This document shows, one piece after another, positions 1,800-30,569 of a DNA stretch of 35,471 bases (position 1 is its first letter; every line of letters starts with the position of its first letter). The translations under genes and the position numbers were made by a program. Location: assembly GCA_947441895.1 (NCBI GenBank), contig CANEUT010000001.1, positions 1 through 35,471 on the forward strand, in the 5' to 3' direction. Under the pieces are notes generated by a model that saw only the letters and a list, made by a program, of their open reading frames with translations, had not been told where the DNA came from and ran no database searches. The DNA comes from Rickettsiales bacterium (GTDB lineage Bacteria; Pseudomonadota; Alphaproteobacteria; Rickettsiales; UBA3002).

Positions 1800-1895
1800 T
1801 TTTGGCTCCTGATGGTGCGTTTGATTGCCTTCCTAGTAACCTCGGCTGCACATCATGGCAATGGTTTTCTGGAAACGAGGCCAGCAGGACGAACT

Positions 1896-1977
1896 GCGTA
1901 GCGCTTTACGGCGCGAGCCGGAGCGTTAGCGAACGAGGGGGTTTGGGGGCGGTTTCGCCCCCACGCGGCGGTGCCGC
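1896..1977. repeat. Half copy of the window-wide palindromic intergenic repeat family (one arm plus the terminal GGGGGCG-N4-CGCCCCC hairpin)
   Basis: GCGTAGCGCTTTACGGCGCGAGCCGGAGCGTTAGCGAACGAGGGGG..GGGGGCGGTTTCGCCCCCACGCGGCGGTGCCGC is nearly identical to the right arm at 28133-28221. It is the reverse complement of the arms at 10714-10797 and 29248-29342. Confidence 0.85.
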
Positions 1978-2040
1978 AATTAAATATTTGTGGTAAAAAT
2001 GCAGAACAAAAGGTAAAAATAATGACGTTTTAATAAACTT

Positions 2041-2084
2041 TGTCACAAAGCTGTAACAAAACTGTAACAAAACTGTGATAATGG
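2041..2084 (+). promoter_or_regulatory. Four tandem 11-bp direct repeats overlapping a candidate extended -10 (TGTGATAAT, hexamer 2077-2082); putative virB2 promoter/operator
   Basis: The units are TGTCACAAAGC / TGTAACAAAAC / TGTAACAAAAC / TGTGATAATGG, read directly from the sequence with an exact 11-bp register. They lie about 80 nt upstream of the virB2 start in an AT-rich tract. Confidence 0.5.
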
Positions 2085-2164
2085 TTAACGACGGCAATTA
2101 AAGCGCCGCAAACTGGGGATCAACCCCGGCGGTACCAACGACTAAAACAGAGGATGGAGTGATT

Positions 2165-2521
2165 ATGAAGACGATCATGAATACAGAAAAAATGATGAGC
2201 CTAGCATGGTGTATGGTGCTGGCCTATGCAGCCTGCTTAATTCCAATGGATGTGTTAGCTAGCAGTGTTAGTGTGAATATCAATGGCGGCGGTGGCGGTG
2301 ATAGCGCGACCATCGGCGGCTTGCTCTGCCGCGTGGCCGACTGGTTCACCGGCTCGGTTGGTCAAGGTATCGCCACCCTTGCCATTATTGTGATCGGTAT
2401 CGGCGCCTTGATGGGTAAAGTATCGTGGGGTATGGCCATCATCGTGGGTATCGGCGTGGCCGTTATCTTCGGTGCACCAACCATCGTGCAAGAGCTTTCG
2501 GGCAACCAAAGCGGTTGCTAA
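2165..2521 (+). CDS. virB2: VirB2/TrbC-family T4SS pilin subunit
   Basis: The track ORF is 2159..2521 (GTG). ATG 2165 lies 5-6 nt after GGAG (2156-2159). The protein has a signal-like N-terminus, then two hydrophobic helices: GQGIATLAIIVIGIGALMGKVSWGMAIIVGIGVAVIFGA. This is the typical VirB2 layout, and the gene sits first in the virB cluster. Confidence 0.75.
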   Translation: MKTIMNTEKMMSLAWCMVLAYAACLIPMDVLASSVSVNINGGGGGDSATIGGLLCRVADWFTGSVGQGIATLAIIVIGIGALMGKVSWGMAIIVGIGVAVIFGAPTIVQELSGNQSGC

Positions 2522-2539
2522 CGCTGAGTTGAATAAAAT

Positions 2540-2573
2540 GAGGCGCATCTTCACCGTGGGTGGGATGCGCCTC
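2540..2573 (+). terminator. Stem-loop between virB2 and virB4 (possible attenuator or partial terminator)
   Basis: GAGGCGCATC (2540-2549) pairs perfectly with GATGCGCCTC (2564-2573) across a 14-nt loop. The T-tract that follows is weak (TTCCCTA). Confidence 0.35.
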
Positions 2574-2658
2574 TTCCCTATACATAAAAACGAGTGAATA
2601 AATTAGGCAAACGGCGGCTTATTCTATCGCAAATGCGCGAATAAAAACTTAGGTCGGC

Positions 2659-6848: not shown

Positions 6849-6969
6849 TTTTGTTTGCTTCCGGTTGATCTGCTGACATCTGAATAACTCATCCACACTG
6901 CTTGCAATCTGCTAAACCCCAGATATAGTCACACGCTGATCTATTACCCACTACATCACGTGGTATTTA

Positions 6970-9736: not shown

Positions 9737-10713
9737 TGAGCTTAACCGCACTCGACACCTATTTGCAGCCTCTCAAAGCCTTGTTCGACGAACAGGGTAT
9801 TCAGGAAATATCTATCAATCGCCCGGGCGAGGCATGGGTTGAACGCATGGGCGAAATGTCGCAAGCCCTACTACCCGAAATGACACTGGAACATATGCGG
9901 GCGCTGGCGCAGCTCATTGCCCAATCCACCTCGCAAACCATATCGGAAGAAAAGCCCCTGCTTTCCGCCACCTTGCCGGGCGGCTACCGCGTGCAAATCA
10001 TCATTCCACCAGCGTGCGATGCCGGGGTAGTGATGGCCATCCGCAAACAAACCACCATTCAAATGGATCTTGATAAATACGAAGCGCTTGGCGCGTTTGA
10101 AAATACCCGCACCGGCACCGGTCACCATGACCCCTATGACGCTATCTTAAGTGACCTCTATGCCAAGGGCGATGCTAAAAACTTCATCATTCAGGCCGTG
10201 AAGGCTAAAAAAAATATTATCATTTCAGGCGGCACCTCCACTGGTAAAACCACCTTCATGAATGCAGCGCTGAAAGAACTTCCGCCCATGGAGCGTATTT
10301 TAACCGTGGAAGATGTGCGTGAGGTGAATGTCGACCATATTCCCAACCGCGTGCATTTGCTGGCCAGCAAAGGCGGTCAGGGCCGCGCCCACGTTACCAC
10401 ACAAGACCTTATCGAAGCCTGTTTGCGCATGCGGCCCGACCGCATTATTGTGGGCGAGCTGCGCGGTGCCGAAGCATTTTCGTATCTGCGCGCGGTGAAC
10501 ACCGGCCACCCGGGTTCCATCGCCACGCTACACGCCGACACTCCAACCTTAGCCATTGAGCAGCTGATTCTGATGATTATGCAGGCCGATTTGGGTATCA
10601 CCCGTGACCAAATCAAAGAATATGTCGAAAGTGTCATTCAGGTCATTATTCAGCTGAAACGCGGCGAAAAAGGCCGTCGTTACGTCAGCGAGATTTATTA
10701 TAAGCCTTTATAG
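9736..10713 (+). CDS. virB11: VirB11-family T4SS traffic ATPase
   Basis: 325 aa. Walker A is ISGGTSTGKTTF, the Asp box/Walker B region is RPDRIIVGELRG, and the His box is NTGHPGSIATLHA. Its TAATG overlaps the virB10 stop. Confidence 0.95.
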   Translation: MSLTALDTYLQPLKALFDEQGIQEISINRPGEAWVERMGEMSQALLPEMTLEHMRALAQLIAQSTSQTISEEKPLLSATLPGGYRVQIIIPPACDAGVVMAIRKQTTIQMDLDKYEALGAFENTRTGTGHHDPYDAILSDLYAKGDAKNFIIQAVKAKKNIIISGGTSTGKTTFMNAALKELPPMERILTVEDVREVNVDHIPNRVHLLASKGGQGRAHVTTQDLIEACLRMRPDRIIVGELRGAEAFSYLRAVNTGHPGSIATLHADTPTLAIEQLILMIMQADLGITRDQIKEYVESVIQVIIQLKRGEKGRRYVSEIYYKPL

Positions 10714-10862
10714 CGGCGTAGCCGCGTGGGGGATAAGAATCCCCCGCTTCGCTCCCCCTCGAACGCTCACGCTCCGGCTCGCCATGGAAGGCTACGCATC
10801 TATCCTTCAAACGTCACCGTCATCAGTGCGTAGCGCTTTATGGCGCGAGCCGCGCCAGCGCT
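10714..10862. repeat. Palindromic intergenic repeat: full left arm, loop, truncated right arm; it starts 1 nt after the virB11 stop
   Basis: The left arm (10714-10797) includes the hairpin GGGGGAT-aaga-ATCCCCC and ..CGCTCCGGCTCGCCATGGAAGGCTACGCA. The right arm begins GCGTAGCGCTTTATGGCGCGAGCCG at 10828. It is the same family as the copies at 1896, 20638, 28034, 29248 and 30484. Confidence 0.85.
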
Positions 10863-10945
10863 AATAAAACAAGCATGATGGTGGGCCGCATACGGGATAA
10901 AACGAATCATTGGCAAGGCCGCGCAAGTCGCGTAAAACTACCATC

Positions 10946-12823: not shown

Positions 12824-12836
12824 TTTTGATTTATAT

Positions 12837-12864
12837 TTCAACGCCTGCGTTAATTTGTTATATT
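12837..12864 (+). promoter_or_regulatory. Candidate sigma70-like promoter (TTCAAC-N16-TATATT) upstream of the prepilin-type gene
   Basis: The hexamers were read from the AT-rich gap just after the virD4 stop. This is hexamer matching only. Confidence 0.25.
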
Positions 12865-12939
12865 CTTTAAATGCAATGGAGTAGTGAATGATGGTTACGA
12901 ATAATGCCCCCTCCCGCTAAGTTAGGCTTTTGCCTTTTA

Positions 12940-13064
12940 CCTCTCCCCTCGGGAGAGGTCGGCGTGCCCTTGGGCATGACGGGTGAGGGCATCGCGCCCA
13001 AAACACCCATGCCCTCACCCGAAAACCGCGCAGAGCGTCTTTCGACCTCTCCCGAGGGGAGAGG
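12940..13064. repeat. Compound nested palindrome built from short REP-like units
   Basis: The outer arms are CCTCTCCCCTCGGGAGAGGTCG (12940-12961) and CGACCTCTCCCGAGGGGAGAGG (13043-13064). The inner arms are GGGTGAGGGCAT (12981-12992) and ATGCCCTCACCC (13009-13020). Confidence 0.8.
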
Positions 13065-13854: not shown

Positions 13855-13906
13855 AAAGCTCACTATAATACGCGACTACGGTTGTGATACTAACCCCCCT
13901 CCAAAA

Positions 13907-14410: not shown

Positions 14411-14496
14411 GTGACTCGTCGATGGTTCGTGATATTCATTATTCACCCGTCATAATATGGTTCACCGCCACACACAAGTTGCAGCGCAGTAATTCT

Positions 14497-18850: not shown

Positions 18851-18890
18851 CTTTCACTGCGCGCACGGAAGCGTTGCAATTCACTTTTTT

Positions 18891-18996
18891 GTCATCCCGG
18901 ACTTGATCCGGGATCTCCTTAAAGTGGATTCCCGCTTTCGCGGGAATGACAAGGTAAAGATGGATTGCCACGTCGGCTTCGCCTCCTCGCAATGAC
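18891..18996. repeat. Cluster of three short hairpin (REP-like) units between aroQ and aat
   Basis: The units are GTCATCCCGGACTTGATCCGGGATC (18891-18915), GGATTCCCGCTTTCGCGGGAATGAC (18926-18950) and ATTGCCACGTCGGCTTCGCCTCCTCGCAATGAC (18964-18996). Related units occur at 28284-28366. Confidence 0.8.
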
Positions 18997-18997
18997 A

Positions 18998-19432
18998 TTA
19001 TTTTGATACTACTAATGCCTCTATCGCCAGCGCATAGCCCTGCGCACCAAGGCCACAAATGCTCTGCTTCGCCACCGGTTCAATAAAAGAATGATGCCGG
19101 AACGGCTCGCGTGTTTTTGGGTCGCTTAAATGCACCTCGATGATGGGAATCTTCACCGCCCGCAAAGCATCATGCAGCGCTACCGAAGTGTGCGTATAAC
19201 CGCCCGCATTAATAATGATAGCCGCCGCCTCGCGCCCGGCTTGCTGCACCCAGTCAATCAGGTCGCCCTCATGGTTGCTCTGCTTAAAATCAACGGCAAA
19301 CCCATGTTTTTTTGCTGTTTCTCGGCACAGAACTTCAATATCGGCCAGCGTGGTTGTGCCATAAATTTCCGGTTCACGCGTGCCCAGCAAATTGAGGTTA
19401 GGCCCGTTCAGAACGGTAATGGTCTTACTCAT
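18998..19432 (-). CDS. aroQ: Type II 3-dehydroquinate dehydratase
   Basis: 144 aa: [71 protein letters not shown]. Confidence 0.95.
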
Positions 19433-19480
19433 GATGCCTCGTTTCTTGCGCGTTGCCGCGAAATAGCCTAGATAAGCCTC

Positions 19481-19705
19481 ATGTCTAACACAGCCTCATT
19501 ACAATCGCAAATTACTGTCAACGGCGTGGCGCGGCCACGTGCGAATGTTTCATCCATCGCTGATTTGGTGACCGAGCTGCAACTGGATATGCGCAAAGTC
19601 GCCATTGAACAGAATCTGAACATTGTGCCGCGCAGCGCCTACGCCACCACCCGCATTTGCGATGGTGACGCCATTGAAATCGTCGGCTTCATTGGAGGTG
19701 GATAG
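19481..19705 (+). CDS. thiS: Thiamine-biosynthesis sulfur carrier ThiS
   Basis: 74 aa. It ends ..[13 protein letters not shown] (C-terminal GG) and lies immediately upstream of thiG. Confidence 0.85.
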
Positions 19706-19796
19706 TTTTTGGTTGGCGCTCGCCGCGCTGGCCCGGCCTGAATGGCCGTGTCGCTTGGCGTTGCCTATGCCGCCAAGCTCCGCTAAGGAAAATACT

Positions 19797-20573
19797 ATGA
19801 ACGATCACCTCATCATCGCCGGACGCACCTTTTCCTCGCGCCTTCTCGTGGGTACGGGGAAGTACAAAAATTTTGAACAGACGAAGTCTGCCATTGAAGC
19901 CAGTGGGGCTGAAATTGTCACCGTGGCCCTGCGCCGGGTGAACCTGGCCGACACCGGCAGCGACAGTTTGCAGGCCGCTATTCCGCCCGAGAAATACACC
20001 TACCTGCCCAATAGCGCGGGCTGCTACACGGCCGAAGACGCGGTGCGCACCTTGCGTTTAGCACGCGAACTGGGTGGCTGGACTTTGGTGAAGCTGGAGG
20101 TGATTGGCGACAAACACAGCCTCTTTCCCGATGTTGAGGAAACCCTGAAAGCCGCCAAAACACTGGTCGCCGAAGGGTTCGAGGTGATGGTCTATACGAA
20201 TGATGACCCCATCAGCGCCCGCAAGTTTGAAGATTTGGGCGTGGCCGCCATTATGCCGCTTGCCGCCCCCATTGGCTCGGGCCTTGGCATTCAGAACCCG
20301 CTGAACATTCGCCTCATTGTGGAACACGCCCGCGTGCCCGTGCTGGTCGATGCCGGGGTGGGCACCGCGTCCGACGCCGCCATTGCCATGGAGCTGGGCT
20401 GCGACGGTGTGCTGATGAACACCGCCATTGCCGAAGCGCGCGACCCCATCATGATGGCACGGGCCATGAAACTGGCGGTGGAATCGGGCCGCTTGGCTTA
20501 CCTCGCCGGACGCATGGAAAAGCGCGCGCAGGCCAGCGCATCGTCGCCCCAAACGGGGTTGATTGGTTTGTAG
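19797..20573 (+). CDS. thiG: Thiazole synthase ThiG
   Basis: From ATG 19797, with AAGGAA 8 nt upstream. The protein reads [96 protein letters not shown]. The track ORF start at 19623 is upstream read-through. Confidence 0.95.
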
Positions 20574-20637
20574 TTTTGATTGGCGAGCAAAGCTCGCGTT
20601 GGGGGCGAACTGCTGTTTTGTTGCCTTCGCAACGTGG

Positions 20638-20777
20638 CCCAAAACCCCCTCGAACGCTTACGCTCCGGCTCGCGCAGTAAAGCGCTACGCACTGACTCTA
20701 CAAATAGTTAGAAAAATCGTGCGTAGCCTTCCATGGCGAGCCGCGTGAGCGAAAGGGGTTTGGGGACAAGGTCCCCA
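20638..20777. repeat. Full copy of the palindromic intergenic repeat (arm-loop-arm)
   Basis: The left arm ..AAAACCCCCTCGAACGCTTACGCTCCGGCTCGCGCAGTAAAGCGCTACGCA ends at about 20691. The loop is CTGACTCTACAAATAGTTAGAAAAATCGT. The right arm GCGTAGCCTTCCATGGCGAGCCGCGTGAGCGAAAGGGGTTTGGGGACAAGGTCCCCA begins at 20721. Small extra hairpins (GCGAGCaaaGCTCGC, GTTGCcttcGCAAC) lie at 20580-20632. Confidence 0.85.
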
Positions 20778-20784
20778 TCAAAAG

Positions 20785-21843
20785 CTACCCAAGCTTTGCA
20801 ATCAGCTTCTTCAACGAACCCATCAGCTCTTGGCCAATACGGTTGCCAGAATCTTTCATGCCCTGATTAAAAATCACCGTTACCACATCAATATGCTTAC
20901 GAATAATCAGCAAGTCATTGTCATTAATCCGTGGATGAGCCGTCAGATAATTCTCCAACAAACTGGCCACTTCGGTGCCCAAGTGATAGCCAAAAATTCC
21001 CGCACGCGACTGAATGCGATAGGCGCATTGGTGAAGGTCGGCCAAGGCGAAAACGTTACCCATATCATCGACCAATGTTTTAAAAGCAATCTCGAGCTTA
21101 CTTATATCTTCACGTGCCCATTCCACAAATTCGCTTTCTGCCATCAGCAATTTTGCCTGCGCCTCCGCAACCACCATCTCGGTAAGAATATCGCGGGCGC
21201 TCACCTCGCCCAGCTGGTCGCGCAGCACAAAATTCGGCGGCGATAGCATAGCAGCTTCGCGGGCCGCTTGCGCTACCGAAGGTTTAGCGGCACGCGCGCC
21301 ACGCCGTTCTTGAACCCCGGGTGGGGGCACACCCCGACGCCGACGGCATGGCCCCGCAAATCCCGGTGCATCGACGAATGATCGCGGATTATCGATGACC
21401 ATCACAATACGATCCGAGATAGTTTTAGCTGAAAATGGCTTCGCCACAAATTCGCTAATGCCCGCATCACGCGCAGCTTGAATATGATCCATTTCAGCAC
21501 GAGCCGTCAGCATAATAATGGGAATATCACGTGGAATACGTTTATTATCTTTCGCGCTGCGAATGGCTTTCACCAATGTAATACCATCAATTTCAGCCAT
21601 GCTATATTCGGTGATAATCAAATCATAGTTGCGTGTAGCAAGGCGGCGCAACACATCGCTGCCGCTATTCACGCAGTCAATATCGCGAAACCCGAACGAA
21701 AATAAAATGCCCTGCACCAAGTTACCGGTGCGGCTATCATGGTCGGCAAGCAACACGCGAACACGCGCAAAAAGATCGCGCTTGTCGCCATCGGTCATCT
21801 GCACGACGGGCTTTCGAGTCGAGCTGCGCTTCGGTCCTACCAT
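20785..21843 (-). CDS. Atypical response regulator: receiver domain with Glu at the phospho-acceptor position, plus a C-terminal helical Hpt-like domain
   Basis: The REC fold reads VRVLLADHDS..YDLIITEYSMAEIDG..IPIIMLTA..EFVAKPF. The Thr and Lys are conserved, but the acceptor position reads E79 (codon 21607-21609). The C-terminal ~150 aa are helical and contain AYRIQSRAGIFGYHLGTEVASLLE, which resembles the Hpt H-x-x-K-G-x-A-x-x-x-G region. The gene lies 13 nt downstream of hdaA. An alternative start is ATG 21798. Confidence 0.75.
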   Translation of the reverse strand: MVGPKRSSTRKPVVQMTDGDKRDLFARVRVLLADHDSRTGNLVQGILFSFGFRDIDCVNSGSDVLRRLATRNYDLIITEYSMAEIDGITLVKAIRSAKDNKRIPRDIPIIMLTARAEMDHIQAARDAGISEFVAKPFSAKTISDRIVMVIDNPRSFVDAPGFAGPCRRRRGVPPPGVQERRGARAAKPSVAQAAREAAMLSPPNFVLRDQLGEVSARDILTEMVVAEAQAKLLMAESEFVEWAREDISKLEIAFKTLVDDMGNVFALADLHQCAYRIQSRAGIFGYHLGTEVASLLENYLTAHPRINDNDLLIIRKHIDVVTVIFNQGMKDSGNRIGQELMGSLKKLIAKLG

Positions 21844-21856
21844 GGAAGCAGTATAG

Positions 21857-22531
21857 CTATTTATCTTGGACTTTCAACAACTCACGCACTAATGGCAACG
21901 TAATGGCCCTACCACGCGCCAGCGACAAAGCATCTACTTCATTGGCAAACTGCTGCATGGCCGCATAGCTGCGCTCCAGATAGGTCGCCGCGTAATGCAA
22001 CACATCGGGGGCAATTCGCAATTGACGATCGGCAAATTCCTTCGCCAGCACACCGACAAGCAGCGCATCATCGGGTGCGCCCAATGCGGCACTGGGCAAC
22101 GCCAACAAGCGTGAGCGTAAATCAGGCAAGGCGAAAAGCAGTTGTGAAGCCGCATCAGTTGCCGTCATCAGCAAATAATCACCGCGTGCCCGCACATGGT
22201 TAATCAGCTGTGCCAACGCTGGCGCATCAGTTGCCGCATCCATATTATCCAGCACCCAACAGTGATTGCCCGTCAGCAAATGGTCGGCAGGCAAACTGCC
22301 CACACGCGCCACGTCTATCATAGTGGCGTGGGCACGCACGGCAAACACATGCGACAAATGTGTTTTGCCGCTGCCTTTCGGTCCGTGCAGAAGAATAATG
22401 GAATAGGGCCAGTTGGGCCAGCTTTCCACCCAGCGCAGCGCCTCAGCGTTCGACTCACCGCGAATAAAATCGGCCGCATGATAGCTCGGGCTAGCCGAGA
22501 ATGGCATTACCAACTGCATGGCCGCACCCAT
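21857..22531 (-). CDS. hdaA: DnaA-related regulatory inactivator (HdaA/Hda)
   Basis: 224 aa. The N-terminal QLVMPF resembles the QL[x]LPL beta-clamp-binding motif. The AAA+ Walker A is LLHGPKGSGKTHL. The size is typical of Hda. The start may instead be ATG 22519 (MQLVMPF). Confidence 0.8.
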   Translation of the reverse strand: MGAAMQLVMPFSASPSYHAADFIRGESNAEALRWVESWPNWPYSIILLHGPKGSGKTHLSHVFAVRAHATMIDVARVGSLPADHLLTGNHCWVLDNMDAATDAPALAQLINHVRARGDYLLMTATDAASQLLFALPDLRSRLLALPSAALGAPDDALLVGVLAKEFADRQLRIAPDVLHYAATYLERSYAAMQQFANEVDALSLARGRAITLPLVRELLKVQDK

Positions 22532-22532
22532 C

Positions 22533-23648
22533 TTATTGCTTCAGGTAAAGGCCCGATTGCAAATAGCGACCTAGGGCAAATTTCGCTAATACACCAATCA
22601 CTGCTGTCAGCGGCACAGCCAGCAAAAGCCCCACAAAACCAAGAAGCACCGCACCGGCCAACATACCAAAAAGCATCCATAGCGGGTGCAGACCCACGCG
22701 GTCACCAATAATTTTGGGAGTGAGAATTTGTGTTTCCAGAATTTGGGCCACCCCATAAACTGCAAGCACCAGCCACCAGCTGGTGTCCATGCCAAACTGG
22801 CCATGCGCCACCAGCAGCCCAAGGCTGATAGAAATAACCGAACCCACATAGGGAATAATAATAATACAGCCCGCAAGCAGGCCCAGCACCAACGAAAAGT
22901 TCAACCCAATCAGTGTAAATGCCACCACATAAAACGTGGAAAGAATAAGCATCACCGTAATTTGCCCACGCAGATAGGCCGCCAGCGTGCGGTTAATAAG
23001 GTAAAGCTGGCTGCGAATGGTGGGTGCATAAGCCAGCGGCAAAATACGGTCCACACTGGCCAGCATGGCAGGCCAATCGCGGATTAGGTAAAAACATACA
23101 ATCGGCGTAATGAGCAGTAATGCCGCCACATTCAATGCCGCTGCACCGCTGGCAAACACGTGTTGGCTGAATTGCGTGGCCGATAAAATGCCTGTCTGCA
23201 TGACGTCGCTGAAATCGGTGGGAAGAGCAGCGGCATCCTTATTACCCGTCAGTCCAGAAAGGCTTTTCAGCAGCGGCGCCATCTGTTCATAAATATTGGT
23301 TTCAATTTGGTGTAGCATACGCGGTGCTTTGCTAATCAGCTCGGTCAGCTGCGCATATAAAATGGGTACCAGCCACATGACTAACGCTGTGAGCGTAGCA
23401 AAAAGTCCCAGCGTAATAATGCTTGTCGCCAAGCTACGTCCCATCCCGCGTTTTTGCATCCAGCACGCCAGCGGATCCATCAGGTAGGCCACAAAAAGCC
23501 CCAGCACGAACGGCAGCAAAATAGGGCGCACCGACTGCAGAAAAACCCAGAACAACGTAATAATGGCAGCCCACATCACCACATGAAACCAACGTTCTTG
23601 CCATGCGTTTTGTTTGGTGAGTGCAGTATTCAAAGCGGGTTCAGTCAT
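22533..23648 (-). CDS. AI-2E family (PerM/YhhT-like) transporter
   Basis: 371 aa polytopic membrane protein: ..ILLPFVLGLFVAYLMDP.., ..YLRGQITVMLILSTFYVVAFTLIGLNFSLVLGLLAGCIIIIPYVGSVIS.., ..ILTPKIIGDRVGLHPLWMLFGMLAG. These are the characteristic AI-2E motifs. Confidence 0.85.
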   Translation of the reverse strand: MTEPALNTALTKQNAWQERWFHVVMWAAIITLFWVFLQSVRPILLPFVLGLFVAYLMDPLACWMQKRGMGRSLATSIITLGLFATLTALVMWLVPILYAQLTELISKAPRMLHQIETNIYEQMAPLLKSLSGLTGNKDAAALPTDFSDVMQTGILSATQFSQHVFASGAAALNVAALLLITPIVCFYLIRDWPAMLASVDRILPLAYAPTIRSQLYLINRTLAAYLRGQITVMLILSTFYVVAFTLIGLNFSLVLGLLAGCIIIIPYVGSVISISLGLLVAHGQFGMDTSWWLVLAVYGVAQILETQILTPKIIGDRVGLHPLWMLFGMLAGAVLLGFVGLLLAVPLTAVIGVLAKFALGRYLQSGLYLKQ

Positions 23649-23652
23649 TATG

Positions 23653-24771
23653 TTACCTCAACGAGACAATCCAGCCATCGGCCGATTCGCGGATGATGAT
23701 ATTTTGTTTCTTCAACAGCTCTTGTAGCACATTCTGCGCACCATCAAAATAAATCGTACCGCTGATTTCTTTGAGCGAAATATTCGGAATTTCAAGTGCC
23801 AAAACGCCCTTGCTGGTACGCACGGCTTGCTGCATTTGCCCCAATTCGCGTGAGGTGGCATATGTAAACCGCACCTTAATCTTCGTTGCTTTTGCCAGTT
23901 TCTCCTGATCCATTTCCGCGGTCGAGGAAGCGATTTGGGTCAGCGCCGTGGCAGTGGCCACCACCACATGGCGCAAGCGCGACTCATTCTTTTCATCCGT
24001 CGTAACGGGTGGAATTTCAATCACCTCATTATTCGCGACTGCGGTGGGGCTTAAACGGCGAAACAGCACGCTGGATGGCGCTTCTTTCCCCTGCGGACTT
24101 AACGTCAGCACTGCCACAATAATCTCACGCGAACCATAGCGGGCAAACATGGGCTTCAGCTCATCGGCCTTCACGGTCAGAATGTTTTTATAATCCACCA
24201 GCCGCAAATCTTCAAAGTCACCGCCCGCCACCAGCACCGCCCCGTGCGACTGACGCAGCACTTCCTCAGCCAATGGCGCACGCAGCTGGTTTTCTTGTTC
24301 CCACAAATAGGGGCGATCTTCACCCACAAACACCGGCAGCACCAGCACCCCGCGCACCTTGGCCGTGGTTGCAACAGGGGCCACCACATTCGACGGAATG
24401 TTCAATATTTTGCGCAACACATCTTCTACCAGCGTTACATTCACTTCGGCATAGGTGGTGTTGCCCTCGCGCCGCGTTTGCAGCAGCTTGGTGCCGCGAA
24501 TAATTTGTGAAAGCTGGTCTTCTTTCAGTTTCGACGCACGAAACCCGGCATCCGCCCCGCCCAGTTTGCGTGCGGTAAGATACACCGCTCGTTTGCGCGC
24601 ATAATCCATCGCGTTTTCTTCGGCCTTGACGCTAATATCATCAATGCCCACCGCCACCACGCGCACTTCCTGCACGGCGGCATGCGCGGGCGCACCAAGC
24701 CAAGCCATCATGCAAAGCGCAGCGAGCGATTGCCAAAACAGTCGTTTGTGAACTATAGGTTTGCCATTCAT
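23653..24771 (-). CDS. Secreted protein of unknown function, possibly DUF2066-like
   Basis: 372 aa with a signal peptide (..AWLGAPAHA|AV). The segments ..[14 protein letters not shown].. and ..[14 protein letters not shown].. resemble DUF2066. Its position next to purM, the AI-2E transporter and hda matches a synteny I recall from other proteobacteria. The family call is tentative. Confidence 0.5.
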
Positions 24772-24790
24772 TCAACGCAGGCTACCGCAA

Positions 24791-25861
24791 ATGAGCACAT
24801 CAATCAACGCACGAAGCAATGAACGCTATAAACAAGCCGGGGTCGATATCGATGCCGGTAACGCACTGGTCGAACGCATTAAACCCCACGCCAAGGCCAC
24901 CACGCGGGCCGGTGTGGTGGGCGGGCTGGGCGGTTTCGGCGCCGTGTTTGATTTGAAGGCAGCCGGGTTCGAAGACGCGCTTTTGGTATCGACCACCGAC
25001 GGCGTGGGCACCAAGCTGAGGCTGGCGATTGACCTCAACCAACATAAAACCATCGGCATCGACCTGGTGGCCATGTGCGTGAACGATCTGGTGGTGCAAG
25101 GCGCTACCCCGCTTTTCTTTTTGGATTATTACGCCACCGGCAAACTCTCGGTCGAGGTGGCAACCGACGTGGTAGCCGGCATTGCCGAGGGCTGCAAACT
25201 GGCGGGCTGCGCGCTGGTGGGCGGTGAAACGGCCGAAATGCCCGGCATGTACAAGCACGAAGATTACGACCTCGCGGGCTTTTCCGTGGGTGCCGTGGCG
25301 CGGGCCAATTTGCTGCCCAAACCCACCGTCGCCGCCGGTGATGTGCTGCTGGGGCTCATGTCGGCCGGGGTGCATAGCAACGGTTATTCGCTGGTGCGCC
25401 ACATTATTAAAGAAAGCGGGGCCGATATCACCGCCGCCCCGCCCTATACCTGCGAAAAAACCACGCTGGGCGAATCACTGCTCACCCCCACGCGCATTTA
25501 TGTAAAGTCGCTGCTGCCCAGCCTGAATGCCGGCAAAATTAAAGCCCTCGCCCACATCACGGGCGGCGGACTCACCGAAAATCTGCCGCGCGTGCTGCCA
25601 GAACATCTCAGCGCATCCATCGACCTCACCACGTGGAAACTGCCCAACGTGTTTGCCTGGCTGCAACAAGCGGGCAAGGTGCCGACGGACGAAATGCTGC
25701 GCACCTTCAATAGCGGCATTGGCATGGTGCTGGTGGTGGGGAAAGACGAAGCGCTGGAAGTGCGCGCCGCCCTTGAAAAAGCCGGTGAGCGCGTGGTGCT
25801 GATGGGCGAAATGATTCCCGCCGCCGACACCAAAGTGGTTTATGAAGGCGCACTCGAATAG
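24791..25861 (+). CDS. purM: Phosphoribosylformylglycinamidine cyclo-ligase (AIR synthetase)
   Basis: From ATG 24791: ..[105 protein letters not shown]. The track start at 24761 is a TTG read-through. Confidence 0.95.
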
Positions 25862-25895
25862 GCGCTCGCGCCTTTAAAATGTGAGGACAGGCACC

Positions 25896-26366
25896 ATGAA
25901 AAAGATTTTTCTCACGGCCATTGTTTTGTTCAGCCTTACTTCAACAGCATCGGTTGCGGCAGATGCGCCTTCACCTAATACATCCTCAGCAACAATTCCT
26001 GCATCGATAGAATTTGAGGGTGAGACTTATAAGCTGGTTGAAACCAATGACCTTGATAAGACTATCAAGGGTACAAACATAACAGATCAGTATAAACAAT
26101 ATTGGGAGCAGTTTAGAGAGGATGGGATTTATATTATGACTGGTGGGTTAGCCCCCATTTATGCCACTTACAAGGTTGCGGATAATCAGTTTTGTATAAA
26201 TTACGAAAACCCTAAAGCCTCGCCGCCGGTATGTCGTGCGCTGTTTAAAAGTGCAAAGGGGCAATATCTTTCTATTGGTGCATCCTCAAAGACCAATTCT
26301 ACAAAAAGCGCTGCTGCGCCAACACCTCAAAATATTTTTATTCATCCTTTTGATAAAGACAAATAG
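25896..26366 (+). CDS. Small secreted or periplasmic protein of unknown function (AT-rich insert between purM and purN)
   Basis: ATG 25896 follows GAGGA (25884-25888). The signal peptide is MKKIFLTAIVLFSLTSTASVAA|DA. I recognise no motif. The segment is visibly AT-richer than its neighbours. Confidence 0.6.
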   Translation: MKKIFLTAIVLFSLTSTASVAADAPSPNTSSATIPASIEFEGETYKLVETNDLDKTIKGTNITDQYKQYWEQFREDGIYIMTGGLAPIYATYKVADNQFCINYENPKASPPVCRALFKSAKGQYLSIGASSKTNSTKSAAAPTPQNIFIHPFDKDK

Positions 26367-26375
26367 GAGCAAGGC

Positions 26376-27335
26376 ATGACCCGCCGCCTGCGCACCGCTG
26401 TTCTCATTTCCGGTAACGGCTCCAACCTGCAGGCGATGATGGATGCGGCGAGCGCGGCGGATTACCCGGCGGCCATCAGCTTAGTGCTGAGCAACAAGGC
26501 CGACGCCTTCGGCCTCACCCGCGCCAAAAACGCAGGGGTTGAAACCGTCATCATCAGCCACCGTGACTACCCCGACCGCGAAGCGTTTGATAAAGCCATG
26601 GACGCCGCACTGCGCGAAGCCAAGATTGAATTGGTGGTAATGGCCGGGTTCATGCGCATCTTGTCGGACTGGTTCGTGAACGCATGGGCGGGCAAGCTGA
26701 TCAATATTCACCCCTCGCTGCTGCCAAAATTCAAAGGCATGCACACCCATCAACGCGCCATTGACGCGGGTGAGCGCCAACATGGCTGTACCGTCCATTG
26801 GGTGATTCCAGCGCTGGATTCCGGCGAAATCATCGGCCAAGCCGCCCTTGAAATTTCCCCATCCGACACCGCCGACACCCTCGCCGACCGCGTGCACGCG
26901 CTGGAGCATGTGCTTTACCCCGAGGCCGTGAAGAAAGTGGCAGTTTCTATACGAAAGAATCGCGACTATTTTGTTGAGGGCTTTCCTTTTGAAAAAATTA
27001 ATGCGCTGCTAAATCTCAACATTACACATAACGCAGTTCGTGTGCACAAACCATTGTGGCATAAAATTGCCACCTACCATCCGGACTCAAAGGACTTGGT
27101 AGAGCATTACCTTGATGCAACGATTGCTGATCCAGAGTATATTGGCCAAGCGCCAAAACATTTTGAAAATATAGAGCTTTTACGCCATACACCTTTGGGA
27201 ATTCTGCTCGTTGCAGTGAAGATTCGTAATACTAAAGGGTTTTATTGTCGTCCCATTATCGCCAGCGCCTACAAGATAGAGCCAGCCAAACTTCGCAACC
27301 GTATACAAAATAGTAGGGTTCACCGACTTAAATAG
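26376..27335 (+). CDS. purN: Phosphoribosylglycinamide formyltransferase (PurN) fused in frame to a ~125-aa C-terminal extension of unknown function
   Basis: AGGAG lies at 26365-26369. The PurN core reads AVLISGNGSNLQA..ISHRDY..LVVMAGFMRIL..INIHPSLLPKFKGMHTHQRA..GCTVHWV..LDSGEIIGQ..HALEHVLYPEAV and ends near aa 190. The ORF continues without a stop to aa 319. Confidence 0.85.
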   Translation: MTRRLRTAVLISGNGSNLQAMMDAASAADYPAAISLVLSNKADAFGLTRAKNAGVETVIISHRDYPDREAFDKAMDAALREAKIELVVMAGFMRILSDWFVNAWAGKLINIHPSLLPKFKGMHTHQRAIDAGERQHGCTVHWVIPALDSGEIIGQAALEISPSDTADTLADRVHALEHVLYPEAVKKVAVSIRKNRDYFVEGFPFEKINALLNLNITHNAVRVHKPLWHKIATYHPDSKDLVEHYLDATIADPEYIGQAPKHFENIELLRHTPLGILLVAVKIRNTKGFYCRPIIASAYKIEPAKLRNRIQNSRVHRLK

Positions 27336-27360
27336 AAAAGGACGCCGAAGCGTCCTTTTT
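27336..27360 (+). terminator. Rho-independent terminator (symmetric A-tract/T-tract, potentially bidirectional)
   Basis: AAAAGGACGC-cgaa-GCGTCCTTTTT lies immediately after the purN stop (27333-27335). Confidence 0.75.
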
Positions 27361-27527
27361 GGGATTTAGGCAGGTGCCAATCTGCATCTCTTGGGGCTTG
27401 CGCCTTAATTACCATCACTGGTGTGGCGGGTGGCCGTTCCGCCCTCTAAATCCCGACTTGAAGAACATTGTAACATGAGTTGCGCCAACGTGCAACTTTT
27501 GCATGCAACACCTTATAATGCCTTCAA

Positions 27528-27950
27528 TTATCCTACGATTTCGGTGCCCGAGAAGAAGAAGGCGATCTCAGCGGCGGCGTTTTCAACCGAGTCGGAACCG
27601 TGAACGCTGTTGCGCTCGATCGATTCAGCGTAGGTTTTGCGAATCGTGCCATCGGCCGCGTTGGCGGGGTTGGTGGCGCCCATCAGGTCGCGGTTGGCCA
27701 GCACGGCGTTTTCTTTCTCCAGCACCTGAACCACGACGGGGGCGGTGATCATGTAATCCACCAGCTCACCATAGAATGGGCGCTCTTTATGCACGATGTA
27801 GAACTGCTCGGCCTGGGCGCGGCTCAGGTGAATGCGCTTTTGCGCAACAATGCGAAAGCCAGCGGCTTCGAACATGGCGTTAATAGCGCCGGTCAGGTTG
27901 CGCTCGGTCGCATCAGGTTTCAAAATCGAAAGCGTGCGTTGAACAGTCAT
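27528..27950 (-). CDS. ndk: Nucleoside diphosphate kinase
   Basis: 140 aa: [82 protein letters not shown]. Confidence 0.95.
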
Positions 27951-28033
27951 CGTCGTACTCCATTGGTTATAAAAATTCAGTCGCGGGGGTCATTAAGGGA
28001 TAAGACCTAAGGGCGCAAGCTTTAGTTTTTATA

Positions 28034-28221
28034 GAAGGGGGCGCGAGCCCCCTACGCTCACGCTTACCCCCGCGCTGTCGCGGCTCGCCTTACGGCTACG
28101 CACCGACTATTCAATCGTTTGCAGTGTACCCAGCGTAGCGCTTTATGGCGCGAGCCGGAGCGTTAGCGAACGAGGGGGAGCGGCAGCGGGGGCGACTTCG
28201 ACCCCACGCGGCTACGCCGCT
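28034..28221. repeat. Full copy of the palindromic intergenic repeat (hairpin-arm-loop-arm-hairpin); the most complete copy
   Basis: The left end has the hairpin GGGGGCgcgaGCCCCC and the arm ..GGCTCGCCTTACGGCTACGCA (to about 28102). The loop is about 28103-28132. The right arm is GCGTAGCGCTTTATGGCGCGAGCCGGAGCGTTAGCGAACGAGGGGGAGCGGCAGCGGGGGCGACTTCGACCCCACGCGGCTACGCCGCT (28133-28221). Confidence 0.9.
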
Positions 28222-28283
28222 AAATTCTGTTGTATTCACGCCACAGACGCGCTAGTGACAATCCCCTACAAAAACAAAACATT

Positions 28284-28366
28284 GTCATTCCTGCGAAAGC
28301 AGGAATCTCAGGCCTCAATCACCATCGGTGGGTTTGGCCTTAGATCCCCGCCTTCAGGGGGATGAC
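28284..28366. repeat. Two short hairpin (REP-like) units upstream of the OmpA-family gene
   Basis: The units are GTCATTCCTGCGAAAGCAGGAATC (28284-28307) and GATCCCCGCCTTCAGGGGGATGAC (28343-28366). They are the same unit types as at 18891-18996. Confidence 0.8.
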
Positions 28367-28387
28367 GGGATAAAAAAGGTTCCGGCA

Positions 28388-29245
28388 ATGCATAAGATTG
28401 TGCTCGCGCTCCTCAGTCTAGTGGCGCTTACCGCTTGTGATACCACACGCTCGCTGAAAGAGCTGCGTCACGCCACGCCCGTGGGCGATGCCTATCATGT
28501 GGCCCTTGCCAGCGGCTACCAAACCTTCGCCGAAGATAAAGTGCTGCGTTACGACTGGTGGACCTCGAAATATTTCGCCGATAAGGGCCTCATGGCCGCC
28601 TATGGCCGTGACGTGGAGCCGGAAGAGCCCACTGGCTGGGAAATTCCCCAAACCATGATGAGCCAGTTCGACGACGCCCGCACCAAGCTGCGCGCCGCCA
28701 TTGTCGTCAATCAGGAAACCCAGCCTGTGCTTACCGCAAAAGCCGTCGTGCTTTATGACCGCTGGGTGGAAGTGCAAAGCAACAAGTGGGACGTGGTGCG
28801 TATCGATGAAACGCGCGACGCATTCTTCGCTGCACTGGCCAAACTGGAAGAAGCGCACGTGGCCGAAGGCAGCACCGTGCCCGCACCCTCCACCCCACGC
28901 GCCGCGCCGGTCGAGACCACCAGCACCATTCTCTATTTCCCGTTCGATAGCGACACGCTAAGTGATGGCGCCAAAAACGCGCTGGCAGAGCTAGTGAAAT
29001 ATGTTCAAGGGGCAGGCAATGTGGCCATCTCCATCAACGGCCATGCCGACCGCGCCGGAGCGGAGACCTATAACATGGACCTGTCGCAGCGCCGCGCCCA
29101 GTTTGTTATGAAAGCGTTGGAAGCCGCCGGTGTGCCTGCCAACGTCATGCAATATTTTGCCTTTGGTGAAACCGACCCCGCCGTGCCCACCGCCGACGGC
29201 ATGCAGGAACCCCAAAATCGCCGCGTCGAGATATATATCGAATAA
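28388..29245 (+). CDS. OmpA/MotB-family peptidoglycan-binding lipoprotein
   Basis: From ATG 28388 the protein has a lipobox signal, MHKIVLALLSLVALTAC. The C-terminal OmpA domain reads ILYFPFDSDTLS..ISINGHADRAGAETYNMDLSQRRAQFV..NRRVEIYI. The track start at 28328 is GTG read-through into a repeat unit. Confidence 0.85.
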   Translation: MHKIVLALLSLVALTACDTTRSLKELRHATPVGDAYHVALASGYQTFAEDKVLRYDWWTSKYFADKGLMAAYGRDVEPEEPTGWEIPQTMMSQFDDARTKLRAAIVVNQETQPVLTAKAVVLYDRWVEVQSNKWDVVRIDETRDAFFAALAKLEEAHVAEGSTVPAPSTPRAAPVETTSTILYFPFDSDTLSDGAKNALAELVKYVQGAGNVAISINGHADRAGAETYNMDLSQRRAQFVMKALEAAGVPANVMQYFAFGETDPAVPTADGMQEPQNRRVEIYIE

Positions 29246-29247
29246 TT

Positions 29248-29434
29248 GAAGGGGGCGTTCCGCCGCCCTTCGCGCCTACGGCGCTGACCCCCTCGTTCGC
29301 TAACGCTCCGGCTCGCCATGGAAGGCTACGCGCGATTCTTCTAACGTTTGTAGAGTCATTGCGTAGGCGTAAGCCGAGCCGCAAAGCGAGGGGGAGCGCT
29401 AGCAGGGGCGGGACGCCCCCTGTGGCGTAGCCAC
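29248..29434. repeat. Full copy of the palindromic intergenic repeat; it starts 3 nt after the OmpA-family stop
   Basis: The left part is GAAGGGGGCGTTCCGCCGCCCTTCGCGCCTACGGCGCTGACCCCCTCGTTCGCTAACGCTCCGGCTCGCCATGGAAGGCTACGCG. The loop is ATTCTTCTAACGTTTGTAGAGTCATT, which is the reverse complement of the loop at 20692-20719 with a few changes. The right arm is GCGTAGGCGTAAGCCGAGCCGCAAAGCGAGGGGGAGCGCTAGCAGGGGCGGGACGCCCCCTGTGGCGTAGCCAC. Confidence 0.9.
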
Positions 29435-29475
29435 TAATAGGTGACAAAAACCTCTCCCCGCGCTACCACCAATGC

Positions 29476-30384
29476 ATGATTGACCTGCCCGACATTCTTT
29501 CCACCCTCGCCCTGCGTGCGCAGTGGTTGGTGGTCATTATCCTCATCGCGTTTGTGGTGGGTGAATTGGTGGCGCGTGGCAGCTTTATTAACGCCATTAC
29601 CTACCGCATCAACCGCTTCATTGCCGCTCTCGGCCGCAGGCTCGACCGTACCCATCGCAACACCGCCACCCGCGTCTATCGCGGCATGATCACTCTGTTT
29701 ATTCTTCTTATTCCAGCCTTGGCGCTTGGGCTTACCCTCGCCCAGCACCAGCCATGGGTGGAATGGCTGTCGCTCATCGTGCTCATCGCCGCCATTGGCC
29801 GGTCGCTGGCCACGTTTCACCTTGCGCGCTTAGGGCGCGAGGCGGCACGTGGCACCCTGAAACTCGAAATTCCAGGCCTCAGCTTCCTGTTTGCCGATAC
29901 CCACGCCGTCATGCGCTATGCCATCCTCACCAGCGCGCGTGATTTTGCGGTGGGGGTAGTGGGCACCAGCTTCTGGTATCTGGTGGGGGGCATGCCGCTG
30001 GTGCTGGCTTATCTCACCCTTGCCGCTGCCGCCCATCATTATACCACCCACGCCTTTGGCTGGGCAGTACGGTCGGTTTTTCAATTGCTTAACTTCATCC
30101 CCCACGCCATCGCCGTGGCCGTATTGGCCCTCGCCGGGTTGTTTGTGGTGGGTGGCAAGCCACTGGCCATGCGCCGCGCCAAACATTTCCACGGCGCCAT
30201 TGCCTATGTGCTCGGCATATCGCTGGGTGGACGGCTGCCAACGGCTGAATTGCCATGGGAAGGCCACGGTACGGCCAAGGTGGAACCCACCCATTTGCTG
30301 CGCTGGCTGCTGCTGCGCAGCGTGGCCATGCTGTTGCTCATGTTGCTTCTCGCCGCCCCGCAGATTGTTAAGCTTTTGATGTAA
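29476..30384 (+). CDS. cobD: CobD/CbiB-family membrane protein (adenosylcobinamide-phosphate synthase-like)
   Basis: 302 aa polytopic protein. ..AILTSARDFAVGVVGTSFWYLVGGMPLVLAYLTLAAAAH.. and ..FGWAVRSVFQLLNFIPHAIAVAVLALAG.. match the CobD patterns (..E..SDGVVAPLFWF.LGG..A.AY...NTLDSM.. and ..FGW.AAR.DD.LN.IPAR..). There are no other cob genes in the window. Confidence 0.6.
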   Translation: MIDLPDILSTLALRAQWLVVIILIAFVVGELVARGSFINAITYRINRFIAALGRRLDRTHRNTATRVYRGMITLFILLIPALALGLTLAQHQPWVEWLSLIVLIAAIGRSLATFHLARLGREAARGTLKLEIPGLSFLFADTHAVMRYAILTSARDFAVGVVGTSFWYLVGGMPLVLAYLTLAAAAHHYTTHAFGWAVRSVFQLLNFIPHAIAVAVLALAGLFVVGGKPLAMRRAKHFHGAIAYVLGISLGGRLPTAELPWEGHGTAKVEPTHLLRWLLLRSVAMLLLMLLLAAPQIVKLLM

Positions 30385-30412
30385 CAGGTTAGTCTCCTGA
30401 CTAACCTGTTAC
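30381..30412 (+). terminator. Perfect 14-bp stem-loop containing the cobD-like stop codon (possible terminator; no T-tract)
   Basis: GTAACAGGTTAGTC-tcct-GACTAACCTGTTAC, read directly from the sequence. Confidence 0.4.
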
Positions 30413-30483
30413 GCCGCTCTCGCGGGCTGATGGCTCGCTCGCCCAGCTCGCTTCTTTGTTTTTCAATCGGTTGGATGATTCGT

Positions 30484-30560
30484 GCGTAGCCTTCCATGGC
30501 GAGCCGCGTAGCGAGGGGGAGCGAAGCGGGGGGAACTTTCCCCCTGTGGCGAAGCCAGCC
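30484..30560. repeat. Half copy (single arm plus terminal hairpin) of the palindromic intergenic repeat
   Basis: GCGTAGCCTTCCATGGCGAGCCGCGTAGCGAGGGGGAGCGAAGCGGGGGGAACTTTCCCCCCTGTGGCGAAGCCAGCC. I see no convincing opposite arm upstream. Confidence 0.85.
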
Positions 30561-30569
30561 AATCTCAAG

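Follow-up and report, generated by a model that had tools for sequence, protein, structure and literature searches.

The DNA analyzed here is a stretch of 35,471 nt (hereafter the window, meaning that stretch at its full length) of contig CANEUT010000001.1 from a Rickettsiales bacterium (UBA3002). Its source, assembly GCA_947441895.1, is a 1.6-Mb draft in 202 contigs with 53% GC and is probably incomplete. A preliminary description of the window had claimed a single family of long imperfect palindromes, likened to miniature transposable elements with inverted repeats (MITEs) or repetitive extragenic palindromic (REP) sequences, at six or more loci. All six that it listed were found by repeat detection and sequence reading at or near the positions proposed, and repeat detection recovered them as mutually similar direct and inverted repeats of 26–57 nt with 77–100% identity. 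Here the family is called family A. Its basic unit, as defined by an alignment of all units, is an arm of 60–85 nt, and the window holds 10 such units, arranged as four inverted pairs and two singles. The core pattern GCGTAGS-N4-16-SGAGCC matched the window 10 times, against 0.04 matches expected from dinucleotide-preserving shuffles, and GTAG was present in 10/10 units.

The leftmost copy is a single A unit at 1895–1977 (plus strand; nhmmer E 1.8e-9, pattern match and fold) that runs from a TGCGTAGC head through hairpin 1 (GCGC-TTTACG-GCGC), linkers and a GGGGGCG-GTTT-CGCCCCC hairpin to a terminal GCGGC-GGT-GCCGC hairpin. The first pair consists of a left arm at 10711–10798 (minus strand; nhmmer E 1e-15, pattern match), a semi-palindromic centre of 27 nt at 10799–10825 (pair-spacer and centre analysis) and a right arm at 10826–10861 (plus strand), the last a truncated A unit with only the head, hairpin 1 and a short GCGC-CA-GCGC end. 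In virB11, the stop codon TAG (10711–10713) provides with its G the first base of the left arm's terminal hairpin, GCGGCGTAGCCGC. In the second pair the left arm, at 20571–20692 (minus strand; nhmmer, pattern match), has an enlarged terminal hairpin and a AATCAAAACTA tail whose opposite strand gives thiG its stop codon, TAG (20571–20573). The centre (CTCTACAAATAGTTAGAAAAATC) occupies 20693–20718 (pair-spacer and centre analysis) and the right arm, with the CCTTCCATGG variant of hairpin 1, occupies 20719–20781 (plus strand; nhmmer, pattern match). This copy had been placed at 20638–20777; it exists, but it extends leftward to 20571, where the tail forms the thiG stop. The third copy, formerly placed at 28034–28221, was likewise real but misjudged on its left side, since it starts at about 28021. 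Its left arm (28021–28103, minus strand; nhmmer) is of the CCGTAAGG variant with an outer tail TTTAGTTTTTATAG; the near-palindromic centre (ACTATTCAATCGTTTGCAGTGTA) lies at 28104–28132 (centre analysis); and the right arm (28133–28220, plus strand; nhmmer, fold) is of the GCGCTTTATGGCGC variant and ends in a GCGGC-TAC-GCCGC hairpin. The boundary at 28021 was set by comparison with orthologous spacers that lack the element, and that at 28220 (GCCGC, then TAAATT) by comparison with the orthologous loci of two relatives, L060 and L061.

The left arm of the fourth pair, at 29246–29331 (minus strand), lies 1 nt past the stop codon TAA (29243–29245) of an OmpA-family gene. It is followed by a centre (GATTCTTCTAACGTTTGTAGAGTCA) at 29332–29359 (centre analysis, site comparison) and by a right arm at 29360–29434 (plus strand), which has the compensatory hairpin-1 variant GGC-GTAA-GCC and is absent from L061. 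The last copy had been read as a half element at 30484–30560. It is in fact a complete A unit (30482–30560, plus strand; nhmmer E 9e-14) fused, through a half-centre (TTCAATCGGTTGGATGATTCG region, 30466–30481; centre analysis), to a unit of a second family, family B, at 30383–30465 (plus strand; profile E 7e-17, fold, site comparison). The B unit begins on the AA of the stop codon of a cobD-like gene with a 12-bp hairpin whose loop is TCCTGA; a GCCGC-TCTC-GCGGGC hairpin and then TGATGGCTCGCTCGCCCAGCTCGC follow. The terminal hairpins claimed for the window copies are present, the mixing of arm variants within single elements corresponds to heterodimers, and the occurrence of elements in both orientations is supported.

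A genome-wide search showed that the similarity is not limited to a few loci. BLAST with the six window copies found 106 loci, and an iterated nhmmer profile counted 112 A units in the 1.6-Mb assembly, a census that supports one genome-wide family of REP-like imperfect palindromes. In order, a unit consists of a half-centre (..TTGaAGAGTCgg), a GTGCGTAGC head, hairpin 1 and the linker GCGAGCCG; next hairpin 2 or a longer GAGCGnAGCGAACG module, then CGAGGGGG and an optional AGCGnAGCG; and finally a GGGGG-loop-CCCCC hairpin followed by a variable hairpin (e.g., GCGGC-TAC-GCCGC) or by a ..TTCAAtAAAACTA tail. The linkers GCGAGCCG, CGAGGGGG and AGCG are invariant, and GTAG is found in 103/109 intact heads. 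Units have two or three short hairpins besides the GGGGG-loop-CCCCC one. In hairpins 1 and 2 the stem comes in at least 8 versions whose strands complement each other (CC/GG, GGC-GTAA-GCC, CGC/GCG, CCGCG/CGCGG, CGCGG/CCGCG, CGGCG/CGCCG and GGCC-GAA-GGCC among the variants), and the loops are of the GAA, GTAA or TTCG type; it is the structure of these hairpins that is conserved, not the sequence. The motif GCGNAGC is repeated 3–4 times per unit. DNA of the sequence d(GCGNAGC) makes unusually stable mini-hairpins, which we used as a lead only.

All 14 of the genome's 14 close pairs are inverted, with the GTAG ends inward and spacers of 21–34 nt; neither a tandem pair nor a close pair with GTAG outward was found among the closely spaced units. 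The spacer has a palindromic consensus of its own, TTCAAaCGtTTGaAGAGTC, the proximal half of which is also seen in single units. What had been called a loop of about 28 nt is this near-palindrome and so forms the apical stem instead. As a rule, the arms within a pair differ in their variant of hairpin 1 (heterodimers). Folded as RNA, the pair at 29245–29436 forms one large hairpin of -104 kcal/mol (z -5.25), the B-A composite at 30383–30562 gives -84.3 kcal/mol (z -3.8), and the single unit at 1880–1980 gives -49.2 kcal/mol (z -2.0); folded as DNA, the pair at 28030–28225 gives -49.4 kcal/mol (z -1.6).

Family B was recognized as a conserved module of 70–80 nt that precedes about 18 of the seemingly single A units. 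It is built of a long hairpin with a CTNCTG loop, the GCCGC-TCTC-GCGGGC hairpin and TGATGGCTCGCTCGCCCAGCTCGC, and its stems covary. A profile search put the genome-wide count of B units at about 103, the majority of which lack an A unit, and the start of a B unit often lies on a stop codon.

Location relative to genes was scored with simple longest-open reading frame (ORF) calls, which gave 1572 ORFs and a coding fraction of 89%; counts near ORF starts are unreliable with such calls and were excluded by requiring a depth of at least 40 codons for a copy to be counted as intragenic. The 57 intergenic single A units comprise 23 in convergent, 26 in co-directional and 8 in divergent spacers. Singles are thus enriched between convergent genes (23/57, where convergent spacers make up 18% of all spacers). 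Many units abut stop codons, as noted earlier for the window; there the offset is 0–1 nt at virB11, the OmpA-family gene, the cobD-like gene and thiG, and the thiG stop TAG derives from the AAAACTA tail of the element. The earlier statement that the family fills intergenic gaps needs qualification: most copies are at gene 3' ends, but about 14% of A units are deep in housekeeping genes, in frame.

Within long ORFs, 16 A units and 10 B units (the latter in purH and uvrC, for example) lie in frame at a depth of at least 40 codons. The A units are distributed over 11 hosts, namely CarB, PriA, leucyl-tRNA synthetase (LeuRS), RadA, UvrC, PurH, PyrD, alanine racemase (Alr), RsmE, a HemW-like protein and MutY. 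CarB carries a pair and a single, PriA one sense and one antisense copy, LeuRS two units, RsmE a full pair and UvrC a whole B-centre-A composite. The HemW-like and MutY hosts were named by reading the sequence, the HemW-like protein having no Pfam family match; in the other nine hosts, all of which were scanned, Pfam domains flank the insert on both sides (9/9), and the Pfam matches are stretched by the length of the insert, as in UvrC, where UvrC_RNaseH_dom covers 207 residues against a profile of 159 positions. In the sense frame the inserts commonly read ..(C/R)VA(E/FH)GEPRSEGV..G..PPS, with GTA-GCC encoding V-A, and antisense copies read ..PLASRLAMEGYA.. or ..GGEPP... No NCBIfam model matched the insert peptides at E<=1. 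Five of the six frames are free of stops in 59–66% of units, the frame that contains the TAG of GTAG being open in only 1%, and every intragenic copy keeps the frame of its host. The claim that no element carries an ORF holds for the window copies but is misleading for the family, many of whose members lie in frame within intact ORFs. One arm of the carB insert has an intergenic counterpart with 100% identity across 75 nt, and the median identity of a unit to its best match elsewhere in the genome is 94%. The preserved frames suggest that the inserts are translated as part of their hosts. Translational bypass or RNA-level removal of the intragenic copies was considered and rejected; neither needs open frames or lengths divisible by three, yet all copies keep frame.

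At one and the same loop, 66 of 120 RsmE orthologues (55%; set P0243–P0362) carry an insert of at least 8 residues, the inserts ranging from 8 to 64 residues, so that proteins with a base length of about 252–255 residues reach up to 323 residues when an insert is present. The inserts come from at least three families, among them family A in both orientations, a CGTC-type repeat (..RGGEADVAIQ..) and other repeats. The RsmE loop is a hot spot of insertion or replacement. An AlphaFold model of the RsmE of this genome (locus C78:3450-4394; alignment of 92 sequences) had a mean predicted local distance difference test (pLDDT) score of 83.7, with 189 residues at or above 90. For the insert of about 55 residues (approximately residues 190–245), which is bordered by two well-predicted elements, pLDDT was 41–54 and the model showed no secondary structure. 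The prediction is accordingly that of a disordered loop by which the fold is not disturbed.

To follow the family outside this genome, the exact 25-mer of the head was used. It occurs at 54 loci in at least 12 species-representative metagenome-assembled genomes (MAGs), whose proteins are about 60–71% identical (median) to those of this genome and whose records are named ‘Rickettsiales bacterium’, ‘Alphaproteobacteria bacterium’, ‘uncultured Azospirillum sp.’ and, in one case, ‘Bdellovibrionales’. These loci hold 78 A units, 18 of which are inside ORFs >600 nt. In PriA, compared between this genome and three relatives, there are four insertion sites, each filled in some lineages and empty in others, and one of them (site 4) is occupied in sense orientation in one lineage and in antisense orientation in this genome. 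A PurH insert is common to this genome and one relative, and an insert in MutL was found in a relative only.

Syntenic spacers were compared on four orthologous contigs, whose OmpA-family proteins are 86%, 80%, 78% and 69% identical to that of the window. At the OmpA/cobD junction, L060 has the two genes joined as TAA-ATG without a spacer, L061 has the left arm alone, and the window has the full pair. All four relatives (4/4) lack the element at 28021–28220 and have in this position about 45 nt of sequence unrelated to it; the boundaries of the element are sharp (GCAAGC then TTTAG...; ...GCCGC then TAAATT) and there is no duplicated target. The B-centre-A composite has the same orientation in L061, but L060 has it the other way round with unchanged flanks. 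Three compensatory pair changes (CAGG..CCTG vs TGAG..CTCA) separate the B hairpin of the window from its L061 orthologue. As the clade diverged, family A underwent gain, loss, halving and inversion at orthologous sites. The suggestion that this is active or recently active mobile DNA thus agrees with the presence/absence polymorphism between relatives, from which the family is or has been mobile.

For a possible mobilizing enzyme, six-frame ORFs were screened for the HUH...YxxxNP motif. The assembly contains one Y1 (HUH) transposase, IS200-like and RAYT-like, encoded at C138:376-933 on the minus strand, which scored 41 bits with the Pfam model Y1_Tnp (PF01797; cut-off 23). The gene is single-copy and adjoins dnaK, which is also its neighbour in the relative MAG L056; homologues with 60–86% identity, one of them syntenic, occur in related MAGs, and the gene is conserved in the clade. 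On both sides (C138 flanks 255–375 and 935–1010) it has a palindrome of the type GGG(G)CACAATAAnTTATTGTG(C)CCC, in the form CAGGGCACAATAAnTTATTGTGCCCTG. A phmmer query with the RayT protein of E. coli found no match in the six-frame ORFs of the genome and of the relatives' 54 loci, and no REPtron, i.e., a REP-associated tyrosine transposase (RAYT) gene flanked by the same REPs, was found in this draft assembly. The cognate transposase may be missing because the assembly is a fragmented and probably incomplete draft. The idea of a RAYT-like Y1 partner, raised in the preliminary description, is thus borne out in that one Y1 transposase exists, but the palindrome that flanks the gene is a different one.

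The Y1 gene flanks also hold short tandem sub-repeats (CCCTGTTCGTTG), an arrangement shared with three related MAGs. A lone palindrome of the Y1-flank type is present at C27:12190-12215. At C16:2145-2200 there is a chimera in which an A head (GTGCGTAGCCGAAGGCGAGCCGAGC) is followed by a GGGGGCACAATAGATTATTGTGCCCCC hairpin, of the Y1-flank palindrome type, in place of the G5/C5 hairpin; this case is anecdotal.

Among known repeats, the bacterial interspersed mosaic elements (BIMEs) of enterobacteria and the RIMEs of rhizobia are mosaic intergenic elements made of REP-like modules. Family A resembles them in being a mosaic of interchangeable modules, in the fusion of A with B units and in its intergenic clusters; it differs in that binding modules for integration host factor (IHF), gyrase and Pol I are not in evidence. 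To our knowledge, intragenic translated copies are not a described feature of BIMEs or RIMEs. Rickettsia palindromic elements (RPEs) were reportedly described by Ogata et al. in 2000 and 2002. Like RPE-1 to RPE-10 (PMC10969869, PMC3733652), which are palindromic repeats of about 100–150 bp, family A lies between genes and in frame in unrelated housekeeping genes; it also shares with them the tolerated added peptide segments, a mobilizing enzyme that is unknown and an alphaproteobacterial host. A 2024 review of MITEs (PMC10969869) singles out RPEs for frequent in-frame insertion. Family A differs from RPEs in being GC-rich in a genome of about 53% GC, where Rickettsia is AT-rich and obligately intracellular, and in being headed by GTAG, where RPEs end in CGTC (PMC3733652); moreover, the single arm of family A is a discrete unit. 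Membership of family A in RPE-1 to RPE-10 is unlikely, tag and base composition setting it apart.

The GTAG-tagged REPs offer the other close comparison. Di Nocera et al. 2013 (PMC3733652) recognized GTAG- and CGTC-tagged superfamilies of REPs, these being sequences of 20–40 nt with one stem of 6–13 bp, and reported the GTAG families to be mainly gammaproteobacterial. In their account REPs form inverted dimers (REP doublets, or REPINs) with spacers of 20–100 bp, some of them structured, and with a preference for heterodimers; they lie in convergent or unidirectional spacers, and their termini supply stop codons. Intragenic REPs encode 20–82 residues and are most numerous in Opitutus terrae and Rickettsia conorii, many of their hosts acting in DNA synthesis or repair and others being tRNA synthetases (PMC3733652). 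Family A is similar on most of these counts. Its GTAG tag stands beside a stem-loop with complementary stem changes; it occurs as singles, inverted dimers and heterodimers with structured spacers; it is mostly downstream of genes, where its termini supply stops; and its hosts PriA, UvrC, RadA, MutY and LeuRS (and MutL in a relative) fit the repair and tRNA-synthetase pattern. The differences are that a family A unit has 60–85 nt, three or four hairpins and invariant linkers, as against 20–40 nt and a single stem; that all family A dimers are GTAG-inward (‘TT’ in PMC3733652, where spacers are usually variable) and have a semi-conserved, palindromic spacer; and that the host is an alphaproteobacterium in which no REPtron was found. 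The same authors used the terms ‘TIRYT’ and TIRtron where a RAYT-like gene has long inverted repeats of its own on either side (PMC3733652), and the Y1 gene of this genome, with its own, different flanking palindrome, matches this arrangement. With bacterial MITEs such as Correia/NEMIS, ERIC and RUP (PMC10969869), family A has in common that it is small, non-coding, palindromic and dispersed, with occasional in-frame fusions; it differs from them in that no target-site duplication or related insertion sequence (IS) was found, and its GTAG-hairpin head and independent half-units do not fit mobilization through terminal inverted repeats. We treat family A as a new family that works like REP/REPIN or RPE elements and is of that kind, not as a proven RAYT-REP system.

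Of the other explanations, that the repeats are an artefact, produced by mis-assembly, by chimeric joins in the metagenome bin or by chance similarity of low-complexity GC-rich sequence, is already refuted and retains practically no probability. The MAG is fragmented (202 contigs) and repeats are typical break points, yet of the 112 A units only 7 are situated within 150 nt of a contig end. From another sample, an independent assembly matched 5.9 kb of the window at 99.93% identity, gap-free and with the same three elements, which excludes an assembly artefact; the elements are also present in MAGs of at least 12 different species records, and the RsmE insert was found again in a 93%-identical orthologue from another sample. 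Chance is opposed by the excess of pattern matches in the window (10 against 0.04 expected) and by nhmmer E-values down to 1e-15. Less improbable, though still unlikely, is the view that the repeats are functional RNA or DNA elements (3'-end stabilizers, terminators or protein-binding sites) that are kept by selection and were multiplied by recombination, not by transposition. Their position directly after stop codons and their enrichment between convergent genes would suit such a role, as would the covarying stems (including the three compensatory changes between the B hairpins of the window and L061), the linkers conserved across genera and the arm in common with L061, which by eye looks better conserved than the flanking spacer. 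Conserved hairpins, however, are also expected if mobilization needs structure. A consensus scan of 18000–31000 for terminator-like sites (hairpin plus T-run) placed 0 of them inside an element, which goes against the proposed role in termination, and there was no Rfam match at gathering thresholds or at E<=1. Elements are found in both orientations at the same sites, orthologous genes do without them, and in-frame copies are present in intact essential genes, which a transcription stop would truncate.

The classical MITE reading, in which the pairs are deletion derivatives of an IS of the DDE type, mobilized in trans through terminal inverted repeats and with a target-site duplication, we consider improbable. 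The outer ends of the pairs are inverted (TTGAAGGGGG ... CCCCCTTCAA), many copies have A/T-rich flanks, often TA, and the size of 150–210 nt and the lack of coding capacity fit. But at boundaries set against empty sites no consistent target-site duplication was seen, the element at 29246–29434 having at most a TAA and that at 28021–28220 being flanked by GCAAGC and TAAATT; single arms are discrete and were gained or lost independently; and a GTAG head beside a hairpin is a hallmark of REPs, not of the ends of DDE transposons. Three intervals between outward-facing arms, 1.6–3.7 kb apart, where an IS bounded by A arms might be sought, hold housekeeping genes only and no transposase, a weak negative given the incomplete assembly. 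The MITE likeness drawn in the preliminary description is in this respect not sustained, there being neither a consistent target-site duplication nor a parent IS among the sequences searched.

The explanation we favour overall, with moderate confidence, is that the elements are non-autonomous, hairpin-rich, GTAG-tagged repeats of the REP/REPIN kind that behave like RPEs. That family A is a selfish REP/RPE-like repeat family is very probable; that the Y1 transposase mobilizes it is a tentative proposal, to which we give rather less than even weight. The GTAG-plus-hairpin head, the inverted dimers and the lack of target duplications favour a REP-like, single-strand mechanism of the Y1 type. Copies would be made from single-stranded DNA hairpins by a RAYT-type Y1 (HUH) transposase, without target duplication and often beside, or in replacement of, an existing element. 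Two units joined with GTAG inward make up the 150–210-nt palindromes of the window, and an A unit can also be linked to a B unit. Elements build up where they are least harmful, both directly after stop codons, especially between convergent genes, and in permissive surface loops of proteins. Inside genes they persist because five of the six frames are usually open and because the surviving copies keep the host frame.

Several points weigh against this explanation. The Y1 gene scored 60.6 bits with the NCBIfam RAYT model, below the curated cut-off of 80, and the palindrome that flanks it and likewise its orthologues in three relatives, GGGCACAATAAnTTATTGTGCCC, is not that of family A. A and B units are absent within 4 kb of the Y1 gene and of the three orthologues, and in local alignments the similarity between the A unit and the Y1 flanks was not above that of dinucleotide shuffles. 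The cognate transposase may be absent merely from the assembly. In length the units exceed classical REPs two- to threefold, and the first stem has no more than 2–5 bp. Gene conversion among copies could mimic recent copying. Lastly, the evidence for mobility is the comparison of sites, and that for translation the preserved frames.

A more elaborate scheme, which we regard as a long shot, is that occupied sites are repeatedly rewritten, families A, B and C (the last being the CGTC-type repeats) inserting into, replacing or inverting existing elements by hairpin-directed exchange that depends on one vertically inherited, single-copy Y1 transposase. Site rewriting would explain why the RsmE loop has inserts of different families and both orientations in 55% of orthologues, why the orientation at PriA site 4 is sense or antisense depending on the lineage, why the cobD spacer holds the same composite inverted, and why the element at 28021–28220 stands in for about 45 nt of ancestral sequence and is no simple insertion. 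If true, the repeats would turn over in the manner of cassette exchange and would steadily supply proteins with new disordered loops. Integron attC sites were also considered and rejected, the flanking genes being housekeeping genes in conserved synteny and not cassettes.

A depth profile of the window against the genome brought out two further repeat families. Small hairpin repeats of the CGTC type (family C), with the forms GTCATTCC-stem-GGAATC and GTCATTGCGAGG..GCAATC, are found in the window at 18882–19002 and 28280–28367 and at about 126 loci genome-wide. L060 shares the copy at 28280–28367 with the window, and L061 and L062 lack it. This copy overlaps an upstream GTG (28328), chosen by the longest-ORF call for the OmpA-family gene, the real start of which is the ATG at 28388 (lipobox LTAC). 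The other family is represented by a perfect 25-nt inverted repeat (TTACCTCTCCCCTCGGGAGAGGTCG and its complement) at 12937–13067, with arms 81 nt apart; the genome contains about 10 related repeats. Just downstream is a pseudopilin-like gene (..FSLVELSIVLVILG..), whose long ORF call, 12904–13854, is probably extended at its start by the repeat.

Three other features of the window were noted. Between purN and ndk, at 27362–27453 on the minus strand, there is a skipping-rope small RNA (Rfam RF02924, 56.5 bits), which is conserved in L060; where the window has this RNA, the purN-ndk spacer of L061 has a full family A pair. PurN itself (26376–27335) has 319 residues in the window and L060 and 195–198 in L061 and L062, and the short forms indicate that the C-terminal extension is specific to a sub-lineage and not ancestral. 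Directly after the B-A composite, at 30573–30605, is a hairpin (GATTCATCCGTGGGC-GCG-GCCCACGGATGAATC) with no T-run behind it. In L060 it is conserved, with stem-preserving changes (GATTCAGCCATGGGC..GCCCACGGCTGAATC; one pair becomes A-C), and it is absent from L061.

In sum, in an uncultured and poorly known clade of alphaproteobacteria, a repeat family headed by GTAG has lasted through divergence at the level of genera and appears to have added loops of 20–60 residues, predicted to be disordered, to essential enzymes that include CarB, LeuRS, PriA, UvrC and RsmE. For the annotation of this genome, the repeats account for unusual gene lengths, for spuriously extended starts and for several of the stop codons. 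The three-state site at the OmpA/cobD junction (empty, one arm, pair) and the RsmE hot spot provide material on the movement of such elements and on the permissiveness of protein loops. Together with family B and the CGTC-type hairpins, family A indicates that in-frame colonization of genes by palindromic repeats is not confined to Rickettsia.

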